Shown: positions 4,642 to 28,435 of the stretch, one piece after another
Numbering within the stretch: position 1 is the stretch's first letter
How the letters are laid out: each line of letters starts with the position of its first letter
Assembly (NCBI RefSeq): GCF_013623775.1
Contig: NZ_JABFAM010000010.1
Coordinates: forward strand, 157,550-189,549
Length of the DNA: 32,000 bases
Source of the DNA: Rufibacter sp. XAAS-G3-1
GTDB taxonomy: Bacteria; Bacteroidota; Bacteroidia; Cytophagales; Hymenobacteraceae
Direction: 5' to 3'
The notes under the pieces: generated by a model
Database searches by the model: none
The model's input: only the letters and a program-made list of their open reading frames with translations
What the model was told of the DNA's origin: nothing
Translations under genes and position numbers: made by a program

Positions 4642-5226
4642 TTATTGCAAGGCCGCTTTTGGCTTAGAACTTAGATAATACACCAACCAGGCAAACAAGA
4701 CCGCCAGCAAAATACCCAAACTACCCCAAGATGGCAAAGACAAAGCATCAAAGTTGAGGAGTTGCTTTCTTCCTAGCATAGGCGGTATGTAGGTCATATC
4801 GGGCACTTTGATAGGAGCCTGTGGGTTCAGGTTGGTTCCGAATTCGTGCAACCAAAGGTAAAAGTCCAGTAAACCCACGGCACCGGCCACCATCAGCAGA
4901 ATTACCCAGCCCAGCACCAGCTTTCTTTTCCCTAGAAAGGCCACAAAAACGCCTGTAACCATAAGAAAGACCACAATGTAAGGCATGACTTTCAGCTCGG
5001 CAAACGATTCTGCATGGATGGGGGCCATGCCAATGTAATGGTTCAGGATGTTGAAGTTCTGGAGCACGCCTTCCGTACTACCGCCCAGTTTGTTCACCCA
5101 GATGTGTAATTCCAGCCCTTCGGGGTATTGGGGGGCTTCCAGGTAGATCTTCCACATAGGGAAGAGAAACAACAAGCCCAGCGACAAGGCTGCGAAAGCC
5201 ATCAATCCTTTATGGTAAGCTATCAT
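4642..5226 (-). CDS. Clade-II nos cluster membrane protein (NosB-like)
   Basis: 194 aa with about 4 hydrophobic helices. It lies immediately downstream of nosZ and 13 nt upstream of nosL, the position described for the clade-II-specific membrane protein. Assignment is by context, not by recognised motifs. Confidence 0.55.
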   Translation of the reverse strand: MIAYHKGLMAFAALSLGLLFLFPMWKIYLEAPQYPEGLELHIWVNKLGGSTEGVLQNFNILNHYIGMAPIHAESFAELKVMPYIVVFLMVTGVFVAFLGKRKLVLGWVILLMVAGAVGLLDFYLWLHEFGTNLNPQAPIKVPDMTYIPPMLGRKQLLNFDALSLPSWGSLGILLAVLFAWLVYYLSSKPKAALQ

Positions 5227-5307: not shown

Positions 5308-7359
5308 TTACTTGCTTAAAGAAGCGGTGGCCGGAGGCACCGGCTTTTTGACACCAGTAGAGAATTTTATAGGAACGGTAGATCCCCTTTTAGACACCCG
5401 TACGTATCCCTGCATTTCCTGGTGCAAGGCAGAGCAGAAGTCTGTACAGTAGAAAGGGAAGATTCCTTCCTGTTTGGGTACCCACCGCAAGGTCTGGGTG
5501 GCACCCGGCATAATCAGGGTCTCGGCGTTAGTAGCCCCCATGATGGCAAAGCCGTGCGGTACGTCCCAGTCCTGCTCCAGGTTGGTTACGTGGAAGAGAA
5601 CGGTGTCCCCTACTTGTATGCCTTCAATGTTATCGGGCGTGAAGTGGCTTCTAATGGAGGTCATGTTCACTTTCACGGTTCTGCCATTGCGGGTTACGCT
5701 CACGTCTTTCTCGTTTTTCACGGCATCTGGGTGTTTGTTTGCATCCAGTTTAAAGAACTTGACGCTGTTAGGCGCTATCTTGTTGGCGGCGATGCCCTGC
5801 GCGTAATGCGGCTCTGCCAGGGTAGGGAAGTCCAGGAGCAGTTTCATCTTCTCCCCGCTGATGTCTATCAACTGGGCAGAGTGCAGCAACTCGGGGCCGG
5901 TGGGCAGGTAGCGGTCTTTGGTGATCTTGTTCATCGCGATCAGGTACTTGCCGTAAGGCTCCTTGGTATCACCGCCCGGGATCATTAAGTGGCCGGGAGA
6001 GTAATACACCGGAATTCTGTCTTTCACCTTGAAGTCTTTCAGGCTCCATTTCACTACCTCAGAAGAAACGAACATAGTAGAGTACGCATTGCCTTTGCCG
6101 TCAAACTCAGTGTGCAACGGCCCTAAGCCCGGTTCTTTCACCTCTGCGTGCAGCACAGACTCATATTTGAACACCGGAATACCGTTCACCTCCCCGTCAA
6201 AGTCTTTGTTCTGGATGGCTTTCTGCATTTTAGAGAAAGAGAACACCGGCAGCGAAGAGGCCAGTTTACCGTTTACCACCATGTACTCGCCACTAGGGTC
6301 TACGTCAATACCGTGCGGCGATTTAGGCGCCGGAATCAGGTACATCATGCCAGGGCATTCTTCCGGCAGCAGGTAGCGTACCTTCTTAATCACGTGAGAT
6401 TTTGCCTGATGCGTGCCATGGTCTTTGATGTTGTGGTAATAGTTGGCAGGCATCTCATGGGTCTTGCCTTCGGCGGCATACTTAGCCGCCAGTTTCCAGT
6501 TGATGGCCGCTAGGTAATCACGGTCATTCTGGGAGGCACCCAGTTCTTTCAAAGTACGAGCCTTCTCTGTGTTGTAGGTGGTGAAAAACACCCAATCTCC
6601 AGAGGGGCCTTTGCCGCCGTTGGCCAGGTCATAGTCAAAGCCGGGTACCAAGATCTGGAAGTCAAGCTCCATGTGCCCATTGCCTTCATTTGTTTTGATG
6701 AAGGAGATAGACCCTCTGAATTTGTCTTTGTATTCGTCAAAACTGGCATCGCCAACCCCTCCTTTAGACAGGTCAATGGGAACGCTGAACCGGGTACCGG
6801 CCAAGATATACTCATTGTTGTTGGTAGGGTAAGGCGAGCAGTGGTTACCGGCGGAGTTAGGGATTTCCATGATCTCGGTGGTTTCAAAAGTCGCTAAATC
6901 AACTTTCGCCACGCGGGGGGTGTTGTTTCCGTTCACGTACAGGAACTTGCCATCGGCCATGCCATCGGTGCGGGACAACTTAGGATGGTGAAGGTCGTCC
7001 CAGGGCACAAAGCCGTGCGAGGTCATCAGCATAGGCTTAGTCTCCTCATTATAGCCGTAGCCGTTCTCGGCGAATTGGCTAAAAACCGGGATTACCTTGA
7101 GTAGCCTGCCGGAAGGGATACCGTAAACAGACACCTGGCCGTTGAACCCGCCGGACAGGAAAGAGTACAGCTCATCGTGCTTGCCCGGTGCCACATACAC
7201 TGCCGTAGCGGCATCTGCGGCAACGGTGTTATCTTTGACATTGGCATCATCCCCTTTTCCAGAGCTATTACAGCTTTGCAGCAAGGTACCAGCAGCCAGC
7301 GCCACAAACAGGCCGACTTTAGGAATAATACTTTTAAATGTATTCATTCGGGTTTCCAT
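5308..7359 (-). CDS. nosZ: Nitrous-oxide reductase NosZ, clade II (Sec/lipoprotein-type signal)
   Basis: 683 aa. It has the CuZ-region DDLHHPK motif and the C-terminal CuA motif CTDFCSALHQEM. The N-terminus MNTFKSIIPKVGLFVALAAGTLLQSC has no twin-arginine motif. Confidence 0.95.
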   Translation of the reverse strand: METRMNTFKSIIPKVGLFVALAAGTLLQSCNSSGKGDDANVKDNTVAADAATAVYVAPGKHDELYSFLSGGFNGQVSVYGIPSGRLLKVIPVFSQFAENGYGYNEETKPMLMTSHGFVPWDDLHHPKLSRTDGMADGKFLYVNGNNTPRVAKVDLATFETTEIMEIPNSAGNHCSPYPTNNNEYILAGTRFSVPIDLSKGGVGDASFDEYKDKFRGSISFIKTNEGNGHMELDFQILVPGFDYDLANGGKGPSGDWVFFTTYNTEKARTLKELGASQNDRDYLAAINWKLAAKYAAEGKTHEMPANYYHNIKDHGTHQAKSHVIKKVRYLLPEECPGMMYLIPAPKSPHGIDVDPSGEYMVVNGKLASSLPVFSFSKMQKAIQNKDFDGEVNGIPVFKYESVLHAEVKEPGLGPLHTEFDGKGNAYSTMFVSSEVVKWSLKDFKVKDRIPVYYSPGHLMIPGGDTKEPYGKYLIAMNKITKDRYLPTGPELLHSAQLIDISGEKMKLLLDFPTLAEPHYAQGIAANKIAPNSVKFFKLDANKHPDAVKNEKDVSVTRNGRTVKVNMTSIRSHFTPDNIEGIQVGDTVLFHVTNLEQDWDVPHGFAIMGATNAETLIMPGATQTLRWVPKQEGIFPFYCTDFCSALHQEMQGYVRVSKRGSTVPIKFSTGVKKPVPPATASLSK

Positions 7360-7389
7360 GATTAATAGGAGGTTTAATTTTAATATCTA

Positions 7390-7908
7390 CTAGCCCTTGC
7401 TGTCGTTCTGTCTCAGATACTCCAAGATAGCCCTGGCATCTGACTCAGAAACGTTCTGGTTGGTCATCTGGGTGAGGTGCTCAGCCAGCAGCTTTTTAGC
7501 TTCGGGGTCTTTCTTGGTCATCTCCTCTGGGTTTACGATCATGTTCATGATCCACTCCGGCTTGCGGCGCTCTGTCACCCCTGCCAGTCCCGGGCCTACT
7601 ACTTTCTGATCACTCAGTTGGTGGCAGGCGGTACACTTACCGTCAAAGATGGCTTTGCCGCTAGTGGCGAGGGCCTGGTCTATCTCCGCTCCCACCTCTA
7701 CGGTCTTCACGGGGCCTACACCTAATCCGTCATCTTCTGCGGCCTCCTCTGCCGGGGCAGCGGCGGTCTGCTCATCCTGCTCATTCTTGTATTGCTCCGC
7801 ATACCCCTCATTTCCACCAGATGAGCAACTGAAGAGCATAGCACTTCCTATAAAGGTTGCAGCGATTAACATTGGCTTGATTTTCAGATTCAAAAGGTTC
7901 TTTTTCAT
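7390..7908 (-). CDS. Class I c-type cytochrome lipoprotein, probable electron donor to NosZ
   Basis: 172 aa. It has the signal plus Cys AMLFSC, an Ala/Glu-rich linker, and a single heme motif CTACH in a GKCTACHQL...GPGL context. It lies 30 nt upstream of nosZ on the same strand. Confidence 0.85.
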   Translation of the reverse strand: MKKNLLNLKIKPMLIAATFIGSAMLFSCSSGGNEGYAEQYKNEQDEQTAAAPAEEAAEDDGLGVGPVKTVEVGAEIDQALATSGKAIFDGKCTACHQLSDQKVVGPGLAGVTERRKPEWIMNMIVNPEEMTKKDPEAKKLLAEHLTQMTNQNVSESDARAILEYLRQNDSKG

Positions 7909-7955
7909 AATGTTAAATTTTAAGGATGAAGCTTATTTTGGGTTTGTTACTGCAA

Positions 7956-7963
7956 CAAAGGTA
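7956..7963 (-). promoter_or_regulatory. Candidate -7 box (TAccTTTG) for the cytochrome c-nosZ operon
   Basis: The minus strand reads TACCTTTG, matching the Bacteroidetes -7 consensus TAnnTTTG. It lies 47 nt upstream of the cytochrome c ATG. No clean -33 TTG is present at canonical spacing. Confidence 0.35.
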
Positions 7964-7986: not shown

Positions 7987-8020
7987 AGACCTTTATCTCT
8001 TTTAATAATGACCTTTATCA
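7987..8020. promoter_or_regulatory. Pair of GACCTTTATC boxes (AGACCTTTATCT / TGACCTTTATCA), 22 bp centre to centre
   Basis: A 10-nt exact direct repeat at 7988-7997 and 8010-8019. The second copy reads TGAC-CTTT-ATCA (TGA-N6-TCA), resembling CRP/FNR/DNR-family half-site geometry. It sits in the divergent nos / qNor-side intergenic region. Confidence 0.4.
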
Positions 8021-8043
8021 TTTTCTCCTGGTGGCTAGTACCA

Positions 8044-8051
8044 GAACTTTG
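8044..8051 (+). promoter_or_regulatory. Candidate -7-like box (gAacTTTG) for the 8072 gene
   Basis: Seven of eight informative positions match TAnnTTTG. It lies 20 nt upstream of the ATG at 8072 and about 42 bp downstream of the centre of the second GACCTTTATC box. Confidence 0.25.
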
Positions 8052-8071: not shown

Positions 8072-8467
8072 ATGGCACACGCCATTTACTACCTACTAAT
8101 AGTCAGCACCTTATCCTTGTCTTTAAGCAAAACAGGGTTCTATGTGCTGTTCAAGGTGAAACAGGAATTTATAGCGGAAAATCTCTGTGAAAAACGCCAT
8201 AATCCTCACGCTCAATGTTATGGAAAATGTTTTTTAAACAAGCAACTTAGAAAGCAAGCCCAGCGGGAAACCCGGTTACCGGTGCAGGAGAAGAAAAGCA
8301 CTCTTGACCTACTGGCCACCGTCACAAAGGTAGAGGTGAAACCGGTTTCTACGGGCGCGCTACCAGCGGTTTATGGCCCCGATTATACTATTGTCGTCTA
8401 CACCATTCCTGCCTTTGCCATCTTCCATCCGCCCCGCCTTTCTGACTTGATCCTTACCATTACCTAA
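8072..8467 (+). CDS. Small membrane-anchored protein with a C-X10-C-X3-C motif, function unknown
   Basis: 131 aa with an N-terminal hydrophobic segment, then ENLCEKRHNPHAQCYGKCFLNKQLRK. I recall similar CxxK..P...CxGKCxLxKQL motifs in uncharacterised Bacteroidetes proteins but cannot name a family. Confidence 0.5.
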   Translation: MAHAIYYLLIVSTLSLSLSKTGFYVLFKVKQEFIAENLCEKRHNPHAQCYGKCFLNKQLRKQAQRETRLPVQEKKSTLDLLATVTKVEVKPVSTGALPAVYGPDYTIVVYTIPAFAIFHPPRLSDLILTIT

Positions 8468-8472
8468 GGCTT

Positions 8473-8506
8473 GCAGGTCTGCCTGCCCTATGGCAAACAG
8501 ACCTGC
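8473..8506 (+). other. GC-rich hairpin after the 8072 gene (no T-run)
   Basis: gcaggtctg (8473-8481) pairs perfectly with cagacctgc (8498-8506) around a 16-nt loop. It could be a processing or partial termination site. Confidence 0.3.
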
Positions 8507-8648
8507 CCTTCCTACCTGCAACCTGCGCGGCCTTGGGTGCAAACCTCAGCAGGAGCATGTGGCTGACACCCTTCTGCCTTTCAAGTTCAGCAGAGAGCCG
8601 CTTCCAGTTTCAGGTACCCTTACAATTCACAGCAATAACATCTGAGTT

Positions 8649-9572
8649 ATGAAAAAGTTTTTAGTACTCACCCTATTTCTTTTCCTGCTAAGCTTCAGTG
8701 GCCATGCCTGTGACGGCGGCTGCACCATGGGCGGCAGCTATCTGGGCATTCTGCCCCAGTTCCATAAAAACTTTGCCGGGGTGCGCTACACCACCCGCAG
8801 CTATACCATACACACCACCCACACCCACCTGCACGAGGGCATGCCCATGACCCATGATGATGTCATGGACGAGGTGTATACCACCGCCGAAGCCTGGGGA
8901 AGATTTGTTCCGTTTAAGAAGGTTCAGGTGCTGGCCTTTGTACCGTATGCCTTCAATGAGGAGCGCACCGCCCGTGGCACCACCAGGTATGCGGGCCTGG
9001 GAGATATAACCCTTTTAGTGAACTACGCCTTATTTAACACCGGTGACAGCACCAAGAACTTGTTTAAGCACTCGCTCCAACTGGGAGGCGGCGTGAAACT
9101 GCCCACCGGCACCCACTCTTTACACCGCAGCGAAGAAGCCTACACGGCCAGCCTGCAGCCCGGTAGCGGCAGTACCGATTACCTACTGAACGGAATCTAC
9201 ACCTTACGCTACGGTAAAATGGGTCTTAGCAATGATTTCACCTACCGCATCAACTCCCAAAACAGCGACGGCTACAAGTTCGGGAACCGGCTGAGCGGCT
9301 CCGGCAATCTCTTTTACTGGTACAATCTTGAAAACGTGCTCACCCTGCTGCCCAGCGCAGGCCTCTACTATGAGCACGCCCAAGCCGATGAGTATGCCCG
9401 CAACCATGACGCCCAAGCCGGAGACGCCTTCTTTGCCAACCTGGGGCTGAACGTGTACGTGAAGAAAGTTGTCCTGGGGGCAACCCTGCAACTGCCTTTG
9501 AGCCACGCCCAGGGCCACCATGCCAGCAAGGCAAACAAGCGTACCATGGCGAACCTCAGCTATCTTTTCTAG
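8649..9572 (+). CDS. Putative outer-membrane beta-barrel (transporter / Phenol_MetA_deg-like) with an N-terminal CDGGC motif
   Basis: 307 aa with a signal peptide ending GHA, then CDGGCTMGG. It shows an alternating beta-strand pattern, a GLGD motif (YAGLGDITLL) and a C-terminal aromatic residue (SYLF). Family assignment is from memory. Confidence 0.5.
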   Translation: MKKFLVLTLFLFLLSFSGHACDGGCTMGGSYLGILPQFHKNFAGVRYTTRSYTIHTTHTHLHEGMPMTHDDVMDEVYTTAEAWGRFVPFKKVQVLAFVPYAFNEERTARGTTRYAGLGDITLLVNYALFNTGDSTKNLFKHSLQLGGGVKLPTGTHSLHRSEEAYTASLQPGSGSTDYLLNGIYTLRYGKMGLSNDFTYRINSQNSDGYKFGNRLSGSGNLFYWYNLENVLTLLPSAGLYYEHAQADEYARNHDAQAGDAFFANLGLNVYVKKVVLGATLQLPLSHAQGHHASKANKRTMANLSYLF

Positions 9573-9657
9573 AATAAACCTGTGCCCGTGCCGCTGAGCA
9601 GAGGCACCTCTCCTTTTTGCAACATCTAGTACTTATCACACCTATAATCCCTTTCCT

Positions 9658-11964
9658 ATGAAATACAAAAAACTCTGGCTAGGCTTTATTGCCGTTATGG
9701 TGGGGTCCTTTGCCGTACTGGGTTATTATGGCTCAGAGATTTACCGCCAGGCCCCGCCCATTCCTGACCAAGTGGTCACCTCCTCGGGCCAAACCGTCTT
9801 CACCGCCCAGGACATCAAAGACGGGCAAAATGTCTGGCAGTCTACCGGGGGGCAGGAGCTGGGTTCCATTTGGGGCCACGGGGCTTACGTAGCCCCAGAC
9901 TGGTCTGCCGACTGGCTGCACAAAGAGGCCATGTTCTTTTTGGACACGTGGGCGCAGCAGGCCAAAGGAACCAAGTATGATGCCCTGGACGAAGAAACCA
10001 AGGCCATGCTACAGGCCCGCCTGCAAAAGCAAATCAGAGCCAACACCTATGACCCCGCCACCGCCACGCTCACTATCTCAGACCTCAGGGCGCAGGCCAT
10101 TGCCGAGGTAAGCAGGCATTATACCGGGCTTTTCATGAACGACCCCGCGCTGGCTGCATACCGTGACGCCTACGCCATGAAAAACTTCACCGTGGAAGAC
10201 CCCGAGCGCATGCGCAAGCTCAACGCGTTCTTTTTCTGGGCCTCCTGGGCGTGCGTGACCGAGCGGCCCGGCCAGGACATCACCTACACCAACAACTGGC
10301 CTGCCGAGGAACTGGTAGGCAACCGCCCCAGCGGCGATCTGCTTATCTGGACGGGGTTTAGCGTGATCGTGCTCATTGCCGGGATTGGCCTGCTGGCCTA
10401 TTACTACGCCTCGCACAAAGAAGAGGAACTGGATCCCAGCCACCTCCCCAAAGAAGACCCGCTGCTGGGCTTGCAGGCCACCCCGTCTATGCGGGCCACG
10501 CTCAAGTATTTCTGGGTTGTGACGGCGCTCATTGTGGTGCAGATTACCCTAGGGGTGGTCACCGCCCACTACGGCGTGGAAGGCCAGGCCCTCTACGGAT
10601 TCCCGCTCGCGGATTCTCTGCCGTACTCCGTTACCCGCACCTGGCACGTGCAGTTGGGCATCTTCTGGATCGCCACCTCGTGGCTGGCCACCGGTCTGTA
10701 TATTGCCCCGGCGGTGTCTGGGTATGAGCCTAAATTCCAGCGGCTGGGCGTGAATTTCCTGTTCATCTGTCTGCTCATTATTGTGGCGGGTTCGCTGGCC
10801 GGGCAATGGTACGGCGTTATGCAGAAACTGGGCTACGGCGAGAACTTCTGGTTTGGGCACCAAGGCTATGAGTACGTAGACATGGGCCGTTTCTGGCAGA
10901 TTTTCCTGCTGGTGGGTCTGTTCCTGTGGCTGTTTTTGATGGTAAGGGCCATCTGGCCGGCGTTCCGGCAGCAAGCCGAAGGACGCCACCTGCTGGGCAT
11001 GTTCCTGATTTCATCTGCCGCCATTGCCTTGTTCTGGGCCGCCGGTCTCATGTGGGGCCAGCACACCAACCTGGCCATTGCCGAGTACTGGCGCTGGTGG
11101 GTGGTGCACCTTTGGGTAGAGGGCTTCTTTGAAGTGTTCGCTACCGTGGTCATTGCCTTCCTGTTCGTGCGCATGGGGCTGCTGCAAACCAAGGTGGCCA
11201 CCGCCACGGTGCTGTTCTCTACCATTATCTTCCTGTTCGGGGGCATTATTGGGACGTTCCACCACCTGTACTTCAGCGGCACGCCCACATCTGTCATGGC
11301 GCTGGGGGCCACCTTTAGCGCGCTGGAAGTGGTGCCGTTGGTGCTTATTGGCAATGAGGCGTACCATAACCTTACCATCAGTAGGCTCACCAAATGGATT
11401 AGGGCGTACAAGTGGCCCATCTACTGTTTCATTGCCGTCGCGTTCTGGAATTTGGTGGGGGCCGGTATCTTCGGATTCGTGATCAACCCGCCCATTGCGC
11501 TGTACTACATGCAGGGGCTAAACACCACGCCCGTGCACGCGCATACGGCCTTGTTTGGGGTGTACGGCGTGCTGGGAATTGGCCTGATGCTGTTCGTCCT
11601 GAAAGGCCTGTCTGGCCGAAGACGCTGGAAAGACGGGGTAATCCGGTTTGCGTTCTGGTCTATCAACATTGGGTTGGCCCTCATGGTCTTGATTAGCGTG
11701 CTGCCCATTGGCCTCCTGCAAACCTGGGCCAGCGTGAAATACGGCCTCTGGTTCGCCCGCTCCATGGAGTTCATGCAAACCGACACCATGGAAACGCTGC
11801 GGTGGCTGCGCGTGATCGGCGACACCATCTTCGCCATTGGCGCGGCGGCGCTGGCGTGGTTTATCATCGGCCTCAAAACCGGCCACTCGCTGCGCGATGA
11901 CCTTGACGTTACCTCAGATTTCAACGTGCCAGACAATGCCTCGCTCCGCGAAAAACTGAAATAA
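9658..11964 (+). CDS. norZ: Quinol-dependent nitric-oxide reductase (qNor, NorZ-type large subunit)
   Basis: 768 aa. It has an N-terminal extension of about 230 aa with one TM helix, fused to a 12+ helix heme-copper oxidase core. Conserved motifs: WWVVHLWVEGF, GTFHHLYFSG and HAHTALFGVYG. Confidence 0.93.
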   Translation: MKYKKLWLGFIAVMVGSFAVLGYYGSEIYRQAPPIPDQVVTSSGQTVFTAQDIKDGQNVWQSTGGQELGSIWGHGAYVAPDWSADWLHKEAMFFLDTWAQQAKGTKYDALDEETKAMLQARLQKQIRANTYDPATATLTISDLRAQAIAEVSRHYTGLFMNDPALAAYRDAYAMKNFTVEDPERMRKLNAFFFWASWACVTERPGQDITYTNNWPAEELVGNRPSGDLLIWTGFSVIVLIAGIGLLAYYYASHKEEELDPSHLPKEDPLLGLQATPSMRATLKYFWVVTALIVVQITLGVVTAHYGVEGQALYGFPLADSLPYSVTRTWHVQLGIFWIATSWLATGLYIAPAVSGYEPKFQRLGVNFLFICLLIIVAGSLAGQWYGVMQKLGYGENFWFGHQGYEYVDMGRFWQIFLLVGLFLWLFLMVRAIWPAFRQQAEGRHLLGMFLISSAAIALFWAAGLMWGQHTNLAIAEYWRWWVVHLWVEGFFEVFATVVIAFLFVRMGLLQTKVATATVLFSTIIFLFGGIIGTFHHLYFSGTPTSVMALGATFSALEVVPLVLIGNEAYHNLTISRLTKWIRAYKWPIYCFIAVAFWNLVGAGIFGFVINPPIALYYMQGLNTTPVHAHTALFGVYGVLGIGLMLFVLKGLSGRRRWKDGVIRFAFWSINIGLALMVLISVLPIGLLQTWASVKYGLWFARSMEFMQTDTMETLRWLRVIGDTIFAIGAAALAWFIIGLKTGHSLRDDLDVTSDFNVPDNASLREKLK

Positions 11965-27517: not shown

Positions 27518-28435
27518 ATGGCTGAGTTCACGGAAAGATACATCAACCCGTTCACCGACTACGGTTTCAAGAAGCTGTTCGGGGAAGAGCCCAACAAGGA
27601 TTTGCTGCTGGACTTCCTGAACGTGCTCCTGCAGGAGGAACAGGGCGAAATCATAGACTTAACGTACCTGAAGAGCGAACACCTGGGAACGGGCGAACTG
27701 GACAGGAAAGCCATCTTCGACCTGTACTGCGAGAACGAGAGAGGCGAGAAGTTCATCGTGGAGCTGCAGAAGACCAAGCAGAACTTCTTCAAGGACAGGA
27801 CGGTCTACTACTCCACCTTCCCCATCAGGGAGCAGGCCAAGCGGGCCGACTGGAACTACGAGCTGAAGGCGGTCTACACCATCGCCATCCTGGACTTCGT
27901 GTTCGACGAGGACAAGCAAGACCCCGCCAAGTTCCGGTATGACATCAAACTCTCTGACACCGAAACAAAAGAGGTGTTCTACGACAAACTCACCTTCATC
28001 TACCTGGAGATGCCCAAGTTCAACAAGACCATTGAGGAGCTGGAGACCAGGTTTGACAAGTGGCTGTACGTGATCCGGAACCTGAACCGGCTGGACAAGG
28101 TGCCCGAGAAGCTGCGGGAACGGGTCTTCGAGAAGCTGTTTGAGACGGCCGAGATAGCCAAATTCACCCCAGAACAGATCCGCTCCTACGAGGACAGCCT
28201 GAAGTATTACCGCGACATGAAGAACTCGCTGGACACCGCCAGGGAAGAAGGATTGTTGGAGGGAATAGAGAAGGGAATAGAGAAGGGAATAGAAAAAGGA
28301 ATAGAAGAAGGGAAGATGGTGGTAGCCGTTGAAATGATAAAGGCGAAGGAGCCTCTTGAAAAGATAATGCGGTTCACAGGTCTGTCACGTGAGCAAGTGG
28401 AGGAACTGAAAACAAACCAGCGTAACCACTCCTGA
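27518..28435 (+). CDS. Rpn/YhgA-like PD-(D/E)XK recombination-promoting nuclease / putative transposase family protein
   Basis: 305 aa. The N-terminus YINPFTDYGFKKLFGEE and the core IFDLYCENERGEKFIVELQK (D...E.Q/K) match the Bacteroidetes PDDEXK putative-transposase family. The C-terminal tail carries (GIEK)3GIEE. Confidence 0.8.
   Translation: MAEFTERYINPFTDYGFKKLFGEEPNKDLLLDFLNVLLQEEQGEIIDLTYLKSEHLGTGELDRKAIFDLYCENERGEKFIVELQKTKQNFFKDRTVYYSTFPIREQAKRADWNYELKAVYTIAILDFVFDEDKQDPAKFRYDIKLSDTETKEVFYDKLTFIYLEMPKFNKTIEELETRFDKWLYVIRNLNRLDKVPEKLRERVFEKLFETAEIAKFTPEQIRSYEDSLKYYRDMKNSLDTAREEGLLEGIEKGIEKGIEKGIEEGKMVVAVEMIKAKEPLEKIMRFTGLSREQVEELKTNQRNHS
28262..28309 (+). repeat. In-frame 12-bp tandem repeat x4 (GIEK GIEK GIEK GIEE) inside the Rpn-like gene
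   Basis: ggaatagagaag ggaatagagaag ggaatagaaaaa ggaatagaagaa. The repeat is in phase with the CDS: (28262-27518) is divisible by 3. Confidence 0.9.

Follow-up and report, generated by a model that had tools for sequence, protein, structure and literature searches.

What are two genes doing between an operon for nitrous oxide (N2O) respiration and the gene qNor? The question is raised by a 32,000 nt stretch of the genome of Rufibacter sp. XAAS-G3-1 (contig NZ_JABFAM010000010.1, positions 157,550 to 189,549 of the forward strand), hereafter the window, in which two open reading frames (ORFs), ORF1 and ORF2, lie on the same strand between a leftward nos operon and qNor. An initial annotation had proposed them as an undescribed accessory module of denitrification, possibly an outer-membrane conduit for metal with a thiol-based partner. 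We instead read the pair, with a probability of about 0.5, as a reduced, nos-docked version of a widespread, hitherto undescribed Bacteroidota copper-acquisition operon in which the genes run ORF1-MbnP-MbnH-ORF2. ORF calling returned the coordinates, the strand, the flanking spacers of 181 bp (8468-8648) and 85 bp (9573-9657) and the position between nos and qNor exactly as first described. The features of the pair are listed below.

8072-8467, + strand: ORF1, 131 aa, with an N-terminal signal/anchor helix, a Cys loop, a variable linker and a C-terminal FHPP
8186-8230, + strand: Cys motif of ORF1, C39-X9-C49-x-G-x-C53 (LCEKRHNPHAQCYGKC), which includes CxxxC (C49-YGK-C53)
8423-8434, + strand: F118-H119-P120-P121 of ORF1, a putative ribosome-arrest-like motif
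8468-8648, + strand: ORF1-ORF2 intergenic region, 181 nt, C-rich and structured, with a strong hairpin at 8473-8506
8649-9572, + strand: ORF2, 307 aa, a signal peptide followed by a predicted 12-stranded outer-membrane beta-barrel
8709-8729, + strand: mature N-terminus of ORF2, C21-D-G-G-C25-T-M27, a Cys/Met cluster on the predicted plug-like segment
8811-8867, + strand: His/Met-rich stretch of ORF2, HTTHTHLHEGMPMTHDDVM (residues 55-73), at the tip of the first beta-hairpin, predicted extracellular loop 1
9084-9110, + strand: ORF2 signature GGGVKLPTG (residues 146-154), invariant in the alignment

Both ORFs are real, conserved genes. Scans against Pfam and NCBIfam matched neither to any family above threshold, including the nos (nosZ/D/F/Y/L/R/X/B/G/H/C) and nor (norB/C/D/E/Q) families, in keeping with the original view that the pair stands outside the canonical nos and nor gene sets. 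ORF1 was first suspected to be a chance ORF in the nos-qNor spacer, because a word-indexed search was empty and the gene is absent in two relatives; the lack of a Pfam or NCBIfam match pointed the same way. This explanation is refuted by homologues, alignment, synteny and synonymous codon variation. An exhaustive HMMER search returned 1,847 full-length cluster representatives at E<=1e-3, nearly all of 120-130 aa, aligned end to end and, as throughout the family, annotated as hypothetical protein. Homologues start with MKR and a hydrophobic run, and the family consensus reads LCENRxxPxxxCxGKCYLxKQL ... IFHPP. In the alignment C39, C49, G51, C53, L55, P120 and P121 are invariant, with F118 and H119 at least 90 % conserved. 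The Cys spacing, initially given as C-X10-C-X3-C, is in fact C39-X9-C49-X3-C53, and the pattern C-X9-C-x-G-x-C recurs in 141 of 147 representatives. Over 81 genes, all four Pro codons and both codons each for Phe and His occur within FHPP whilst the peptide is kept; selection therefore acts on the peptide. ORF1 is missing in Nibribacter koreensis and Rufibacter sp. DG15C, where neither a remnant nor a pseudogene was found; at loci L002 and L003 (L numbers denote the loci compared) it is gone without trace, with the promoter motif and ORF2 kept.

Of the 461 ORF2 homologues the first come from Rufibacter, Nibribacter and Pontibacter (84-53 % identity) and others from many further Bacteroidota, under the annotations 'hypothetical', 'transporter' and 'MetA-pathway of phenol degradation'. 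After the signal peptide the family has an almost invariant consensus, ACDxCGC; C21 never varies and C25 is conserved to at least 90 %. No part of the family is more conserved than the segment before the first strand, C21-DGG-C25-T-M27 ... GILPQFHKNF. The protein collection represents ORF1 only by P0121, a 61 aa C-terminal fragment, and its identical match to ORF2, P0001, has 281 aa and starts at Met27, without the signal peptide and Cys motif (8649-8726). Both entries look like start-site or annotation errors that hide the key motifs of the two families.

The genomic surroundings of the two families bear on the copper reading. We sampled 80 genome loci around ORF2 relatives, called their ORFs and searched these with hidden Markov models of both families; a 16-sequence ORF2 alignment supplied the GGGVKLPTG pattern, which retrieved 244 genomic relatives. 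In approximately 70 of the 80 loci the ORF2 homologue is preceded on its strand by a gene of the ORF1 family, and in approximately 50 the two families bracket a pair of genes in the order ORF1, MbnP, MbnH, ORF2. The second gene of this four-gene operon encodes a 272 aa lipoprotein identified as MbnP (PF20243, 6.8e-55), and the third a 356 aa CCP_MauG di-haem enzyme closest to the MbnH family (TIGR04039, 3.3e-65). ORF1 is always the first gene of the module. Neighbours include SCO1/SenC in five loci (just downstream of ORF2 in four), TonB-dependent receptors in four and extracytoplasmic function (ECF) sigma factors in six; shorter forms comprising ORF1-ORF2, with or without a further gene, c4, also occur. 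The window holds one of the short forms: tblastn with 12 MbnP and 12 MbnH homologues as queries found neither gene in it, and it also lacks SCO1 and the c4 lipoprotein. Literature searches did not find the four-gene operon, and a full-text search for FHPP/IFHPP likewise gave nothing relevant.

Bacteroidota lipoproteins destined for the cell surface carry an export signal of acidic residues after the lipobox Cys. All 44 MbnP homologues (from loci L009-L082) have lipoprotein signal peptides, and 32 of the 44 show at least two Asp/Glu within six residues past that Cys, which resembles the export signal; MbnP may thus be surface-exposed in Bacteroidota. MbnP is known from experiment to bind copper, for which its site requires a kynurenine that MbnH makes from Trp (PMC11951088), and genome mining placed MbnPH pairs far beyond methanobactin operons, beside TonB-dependent transporters (PMC3621798). 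The outer-membrane partner in Proteobacteria is the TonB-dependent MbnT, in contrast to the ORF2-type barrel found here.

Several variations on the module were also observed. The c4 genes encode a lipoprotein family of approximately 135 aa with no significant Pfam match, which adjoins ORF2 in operons without MbnH (L057 5058-5465, L061 7209-7616 and 12 other loci), sometimes lies between ORF1 and ORF2, as in Adhaeribacter (L037, L054, L079), and may be an alternative periplasmic or surface partner. The whole module or MbnP-MbnH is tandemly duplicated in L033, L082, L009, L030, L041, L044 and L049; Runella defluvii (L033) has three ORF1 genes within 8 kb, and elsewhere a second MbnP-MbnH pair directly follows ORF2. 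A variant subfamily, ORF1b, keeps the N-terminal helix and the terminal IFHPP without the C-X9-C-X3-C motif and still heads MbnP-MbnH-ORF2 operons (L043 7654-8034 and nine other loci, of Chryseolinea, Ohtaekwangia and Cyclobacteriaceae type).

How the pair relates to denitrification can be judged from the genes on either side of it.

7390-7908, − strand: cytochrome c, first gene of the leftward nos operon
5308-7359, − strand: nosZ, Sec-type clade II (TIGR04246, 7e-271)
5308-7908, − strand: cytochrome c and nosZ together, encoding the copper enzyme proposed to be served
9658-11964, + strand: qNor (PF22085 and COX1), possibly co-transcribed with ORF2

The nos operon continues leftward as cytochrome c, nosZ, a conserved 194 aa ORF, nosL, nosD, nosF and nosY. 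On the other side, the + strand of the 85 bp gap before qNor contains no terminator-like site, as had been noted, the sole candidate being on the − strand at 9600-9583. Position between nos and qNor and an FNR/CRP-like motif shared with nos are what favour a denitrification-specific module, whether as a conduit for nitric oxide (NO) or N2O or as a qNor-tied NO-stress device. A Saprospiraceae metagenome-assembled genome adds to this: at L068 (9262-10894) an ORF2 homologue follows a gene for the NO-repair protein ScdA/RIC (di-iron repair; PF04405 and Hemerythrin) between nosF and nosY. The family as a whole, however, is not denitrification-specific, since nosZ lies within 10 kb in only 8 of the 80 ORF2 loci and qNor in only 3. 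The remaining 72 have no nos or nor genes nearby, and the majority context is MbnPH and SCO1. Moreover, NO and N2O need no outer-membrane channels. We consider this explanation very improbable, and the initial proposal of a denitrification-specific accessory module does not hold, most homologues being distributed independently of nos and nor.

The link to nos is nonetheless a stable property of the lineage to which the window belongs. Every member of its clade that we examined is divergent from cytochrome c-nosZ, the nos-adjacent members coming from Nibribacter, two Rufibacter, four Pontibacter, Adhaeribacter rhizoryzae and Flammeovirgaceae bacterium 311. qNor directly follows ORF2 in L003, L005, L006, L084 and L085 but not in L002, L004, L007 and L083. 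As ORF2 adjoins nos even where qNor lies elsewhere, its stable partner is nos, which encodes a copper enzyme, and not qNor. In a neighbour-joining tree the nos-linked ORF2s of Hymenobacteraceae type form one clade with L010 as its sister, whilst those of L061 and L068 fall elsewhere; in L061, ORF1-ORF2-c4 stands upstream of and co-directional with cytochrome c-nosZ-B-L-D-F-Y. This distribution suggests that nos linkage arose at least two to three times. The three links outside the main clade are far above chance, given that a 20 kb window is approximately 0.4 % of a genome, a rough estimate that is uncorrected for kinship. The evidence fits a copper module that is general to Bacteroidota and has become docked onto the nos locus in a lineage-specific way.

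Other features of these surroundings were recorded in passing. The 194 aa ORF (4642-5226, − strand) in the nosZ-nosL interval has no Pfam or NCBIfam match, is present at 44-73 % identity in every nos cluster examined and is fused to nosL in L007 and L068. In Pontibacter actiniarum (L085 13253-16237), the region 3' of qNor encodes a NirK-like multicopper protein-cytochrome c fusion, an FGE-sulfatase (NirV-like) protein and SCO1/SenC, and is a copper-rich denitrification island. Approximately 18 kb downstream in the window, a transposase-like gene of the PD-(D/E)XK nuclease family (27518-28435, + strand; PF12784, 1.8e-79) is unrelated to ORF1-ORF2.

In the region between the divergent genes the following elements were identified.

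7955-7962, − strand: candidate Bacteroidota -7 element TAccTTTG of the leftward cytochrome c-nosZ operon, read from the sequence
7987-7998, no strand assigned: box 1, an imperfect FNR/CRP-like box (AGACCTTTATCT), approximately 43 bp from the inferred leftward transcription start site (TSS), in the composite motif
7995-8021, + strand: conserved composite motif, degenerate form ATCTCTTYTANNNRTGAYNNNNRTCAT, window sequence ATCTCTTTTAATAATGACCTTTATCAT, upstream of ORF1
8009-8020, no strand assigned: box 2, an FNR/CRP-like palindrome (TGACCTTTATCA), approximately 42 bp upstream of the inferred rightward TSS
8044-8051, + strand: candidate -7-like element GAACTTTG, putative promoter element of the ORF1-ORF2 transcript

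The elements at 7955-7962 and 8044-8051 were assigned as candidates by the Bacteroidota -7 consensus. The two boxes lie 22 bp apart, each approximately 42 bp from its candidate -7 element or TSS. The pattern TGAYN4RTCA has four matches in the window against 1.3 expected, box 2 being the only intergenic one, whilst ATCTCTTYTANNNRTGAYNNNNRTCAT has one match at up to three mismatches against 0 expected. Among 85 loci the composite motif is limited to 10, all nos-linked and of Hymenobacteraceae type, and it is always upstream of ORF1 or ORF2, standing before ORF2 where ORF1 is missing. On the leftward side, an equivalent TAnnTTTG occurs at the corresponding place in 8 of 9 related nos-linked loci compared. 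On the rightward side, the distance from box 2 to the start of the -7-like element is 27 nt in the window as well as in L085; every related locus has a GAnnTTTG-like element after box 2, that of L006 reading TTTA. The initial annotation had placed the pair downstream of an FNR/DNR-like box; the palindrome at 8009-8020 indeed belongs to a motif shared with the nos promoter in 10 of 10 related nos-linked loci. The arrangement of the boxes supports co-regulation of ORF1-ORF2 with the nos operon, as judged from promoter sequence.

We also observed that the bidirectional architecture at 7987-8051 is kept in all nos-linked loci of Hymenobacteraceae type (L001-L007, L083-L085), and that the composite motif occurs in duplicate in L005 and L084, which carry an inserted cupin gene. 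A further palindrome, TTTGTTactgcAACAAA (approximately 7944-7960), was considered as an operator and rejected because related loci do not share it; the leftward -7 element is the better interpretation of its AACAAAGGTA half.

What ORF2 might contribute to such a locus was approached through its structure. An AlphaFold2 model built with 27 sequences is a 12-stranded barrel (predicted local distance difference test score, pLDDT, 78.5; predicted template modelling score, pTM, 0.76), so that the initial description of an outer-membrane beta-barrel whose mature N-terminus begins CDGGC, directly after the signal peptide, stands as a prediction. Cleavage by signal peptidase I before Cys21 is likelier than lipoprotein processing, because of the bulky or charged residues at -2 and the barrel nature of the protein; the lipoprotein alternative was set aside on the same grounds. 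The best Foldseek matches in the PDB were FapF (5o67, 7e-9) and the COG4313 channel Pput2725 (4rl8, 1.4e-8), at a template modelling score of approximately 0.6 (0.56-0.65 for 4rl8). Pfam gave ORF2 only a sub-threshold match to the Autotransporter beta-domain (3e-4), and the ORF2-family profile, like that of ORF1, found nothing meaningful among PDB sequences. ORF2 shares with Pput2725 and FapF the predicted 12 strands and a conserved N-terminal segment before strand 1, and a few family members reach PF13557 (Phenol_MetA_deg), the family of Pput2725 (2 of 27 relatives, best 2.8e-8). Unlike these, the ORF2 of the window misses PF13557 and has a Cys-rich N-terminus and the GGGVKLPTG signature, and its family occurs in a copper-related genomic context, not among genes for the catabolism of aromatics or lipids or for amyloid secretion. 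The first 14 residues of Pput2725 fold inward as a plug of the lumen (PMC4493636). The Cys-rich N-terminus of ORF2 probably sits in or under the barrel lumen in the same way, a placement made by analogy only, since residues 13-30, which include it, have pLDDT below 50.

We think that ORF2 is probably a copper-related outer-membrane channel. Its His/Met-rich loop and Cys/Met N-terminus are typical copper ligands, and the occurrence beside SCO1, MbnP and NosZ points to copper in each case. From the barrel topology, hairpin 1 is predicted to have its tip outside the cell. From the mature N-terminus through the first hairpin (approximately 69 residues), nos-linked ORF2s have 6-12 His and Met residues compared with a median of approximately 3 elsewhere, and the L010 protein, enriched independently, is equally His/Met-rich in a first hairpin of different sequence. 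Precedent exists in OprC/NosA, a TonB-dependent outer-membrane copper importer that is anaerobically expressed, copper-repressed and linked to NosZ, with a Cys/Met plug site and a surface methionine track (PMC8610252). ORF2 resembles it as an outer-membrane protein apparently tied to copper supply, with Cys/Met and His/Met residues on its predicted plug and surface, and oprC is preceded by a homologue of the leader gene cruR. The two differ in architecture: ORF2 is a 12-stranded barrel of approximately 290 residues with no TonB plug domain or Ton box, whereas OprC has 22 strands. No TonB-receptor Pfam match (PF00593/PF07715) was found in ORF2, its N-terminus, C-DGG-C-T-M, contains no CxxxM and an equivalent HxM could not be placed; it is without the CxxxM-HxM copper site. 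Transport through ORF2 would be passive, as it has neither the TonB plug domain nor the Ton box.

The same structural relatives leave room for a cargo other than ionic copper, such as a hydrophobic or amphipathic molecule, a chalkophore-like ligand, or a polypeptide, for instance in helping MbnP to the surface. The closest folds, FapF and COG4313, and the PF13557 matches speak for such a cargo, as do the lipoprotein signals of MbnP with their acidic, export-like residues. Nos-linked versions, however, keep ORF2 without MbnP, and the ligand-type residues and genomic contexts set out above point to copper itself; on balance we regard another cargo as unlikely. Of the initial suggestion of a metal conduit with a thiol partner, a copper conduit is the best-supported role for the pair, but ORF1 resembles a regulatory leader more than a thiol partner.

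The comparison behind this last point is with CruR (Bp2923) of Bordetella pertussis and CutF of Rhodobacter capsulatus, small exported DUF2946 proteins with a copper motif (CXXC in CruR, CxxxC in CutF), a C-terminal RAPP/Pro-rich arrest motif and conserved spacing between the motifs; they come first in copper operons and are followed by a long intergenic region, with downstream control by Rho-dependent termination (CruR) or stem-loop melting (CutF) (PMC9426467, PMC9973294, bioRxiv 2025.02.05.636593). Homologues of cruR also head MbnPH-like and OprC operons, and the motif spacing of CruR is reported to hold within +/-2 (PMC9426467, PMC9973294). ORF1 shares much of this design. It is shorter than 150 aa (131) with an N-terminal signal/anchor, its putative metal-binding Cys motif includes CxxxC as in CutF, and a Pro-Pro lies within approximately 15 C-terminal residues, as (I/V)FHPP. 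The distance from the last Cys to PP is roughly conserved, more loosely than in CruR, over a linker that is otherwise unconserved, at 61-72 residues with a peak at 65 (64-66 in 92 of 147 representatives). PP is followed by 2-4 residues before the stop in 107 of the 147 and by 1-5 in 126, the window ORF1 having 10. Finally, ORF1 heads MbnP-MbnH-ORF2 modules and is followed by a long structured spacer.

Across the family, that spacer measures 128 nt before MbnP and 88 nt before ORF2 (medians), and it contains more C than G (3,109 vs 2,333). Against shuffled controls, folding gave a mean z of -2.44 over 59 loci, with z < -2 in 33. The spacer of the window has a minimum free energy of -62 kcal/mol (z = -2.19) and a 13 bp composite hairpin at 8473-8506. 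By analogy with these systems, then, the closest functional precedent for ORF1-ORF2 would be cruR-oprC/nosA. That ORF1 is itself a CruR-like leader we propose with reserve, the odds being somewhat against it. The differences are clear: C-X9-C-X3-C with (I/V)FHPP replaces CXXC with RAPP, the motifs are approximately 65 rather than 45 residues apart, and the family occurs only in Bacteroidota, which differ in translation initiation and in Rho. Sequence homology to DUF2946 is also not detectable, searches of Pfam and NCBIfam with 40 ORF1 relatives at E<=10 having matched neither DUF2946 (PF11162) nor HYC_CC_PP nor any other meaningful family. The list of 'CutF-like' proteins in the CutF study is 19 % Bacteroidota and may include the ORF1 family.

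ORF1 could alternatively be a stable, inner-membrane-anchored periplasmic protein that partners the barrel, either as a thiol/copper chaperone or as a TonB-like tether reaching the outer membrane by its disordered linker and FHPP. Its model is compatible with this, showing over residues 1-70 a confident transmembrane helix (2-29), a Cys loop (38-51) and a second helix in a hairpin, followed by a linker of approximately 50 residues in low-confidence coil up to FHPP. Its three invariant Cys residues are candidates for a metal or disulfide site, and its pairing with ORF2 survives the loss of MbnPH. Against a stable partner it speaks that the gene is always first and is followed by a long structured spacer, that the middle of the protein is highly variable and that the ORF1b relatives are without the Cys motif. 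The loss of ORF1 from L002 and L003 with ORF2 kept also fits a regulator better than an obligate structural partner. We therefore hold a stable partnership to be rather unlikely, though a serious competitor to the leader.

Taken together, the reading of ORF1-ORF2 as a nos-docked copper module would work as follows. ORF2 would be a channel of COG4313/FapF fold letting copper cross the outer membrane, cooperating in most Bacteroidota with MbnP, a lipoprotein that binds copper, and with MbnH, which matures MbnP. In the nos-linked clade without MbnPH, the His/Met-rich surface loop of the barrel would take over copper capture, and the channel would feed copper to NosL and NosZ. ORF1 would be a translated leader ORF whose nascent exported chain senses copper through the Cys motif, the FHPP near its C-terminus modulating how the ribosome advances and, through this, termination within, or accessibility of, the structured spacer that leads to the next gene. 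An activator of the FNR/CRP family would switch ORF1-ORF2 on together with nos. Since the ORF1-ORF2 promoter, with its box, mirrors that of nos, the channel would be made during induction of N2O respiration; it would presumably be throttled when copper is plentiful. Copper as the substrate of ORF2, ORF1 as a regulator and the direction of that regulation are what we infer from these comparisons.

In its most general form the proposal is that Bacteroidota own an equivalent of cruR-oprC/nosA that is not detectably related in sequence. New copper-sensing ribosome-arrest leaders, marked by C-X9-C-X3-C and a terminal FHPP, would control a TonB-independent, 12-stranded copper channel that works with MbnP/MbnH in most species and that several lineages have recruited, under FNR-type control, as a dedicated copper supply for clade II NosZ. 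In this entirety we consider it tentative and unlikely to be right in every part.

A number of observations weigh against this picture. The characterized structural relatives of ORF2 move hydrophobic molecules (COG4313) or polypeptides (FapF), and the Cys-rich N-terminus of the barrel is the poorly modelled segment noted above. For ORF1, homology to DUF2946 is lacking at the permissive threshold applied, the Cys-to-PP spacing is looser than that of CruR, and the ORF1b subfamily keeps FHPP without a Cys motif. The first 70 residues model as a confident helical hairpin, more structure than a disposable leader needs. In the window 10 residues separate PP from the stop, and the hairpin at 8473 would be out of reach of a ribosome stalled at PP. 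Attenuation by ORF1 would also place a co-transcribed qNor, an iron enzyme, under copper regulation, which is odd. We know of no arrest peptide in Bacteroidota. The precedent is itself uneven, NosA being needed for copper-containing NosZ in P. stutzeri JM300 and not in another strain, so that its role in NosZ maturation is strain-dependent (PMC8610252).

In sum, the evidence agrees with a conduit for metal that is regulated together with N2O respiration and disagrees with a module specific to denitrification. Copper-responsive leader ORFs and outer-membrane copper importers serving NosZ are already known kinds of element; the two families described here are without names or models. For these families, annotated only as hypothetical and counting approximately 1,800 representatives of ORF1 and hundreds of homologues of ORF2, the copper module offers a working hypothesis. 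It also offers a candidate outer-membrane partner for the enigmatic MbnP/MbnH outside methanotrophs. If the leader is borne out, a copper-sensing leader-peptide mechanism would reach a second phylum, through a family without detectable similarity to DUF2946. N2O reductase contains 12 copper atoms per dimer, copper limitation causes denitrifiers to emit N2O, and Bacteroidota with clade II NosZ are considered important N2O sinks. A co-regulated, dedicated copper channel, if true, would be a testable answer to how copper enters through the outer membrane of these organisms, and its genes would provide a genomic marker for copper-robust N2O reducers.

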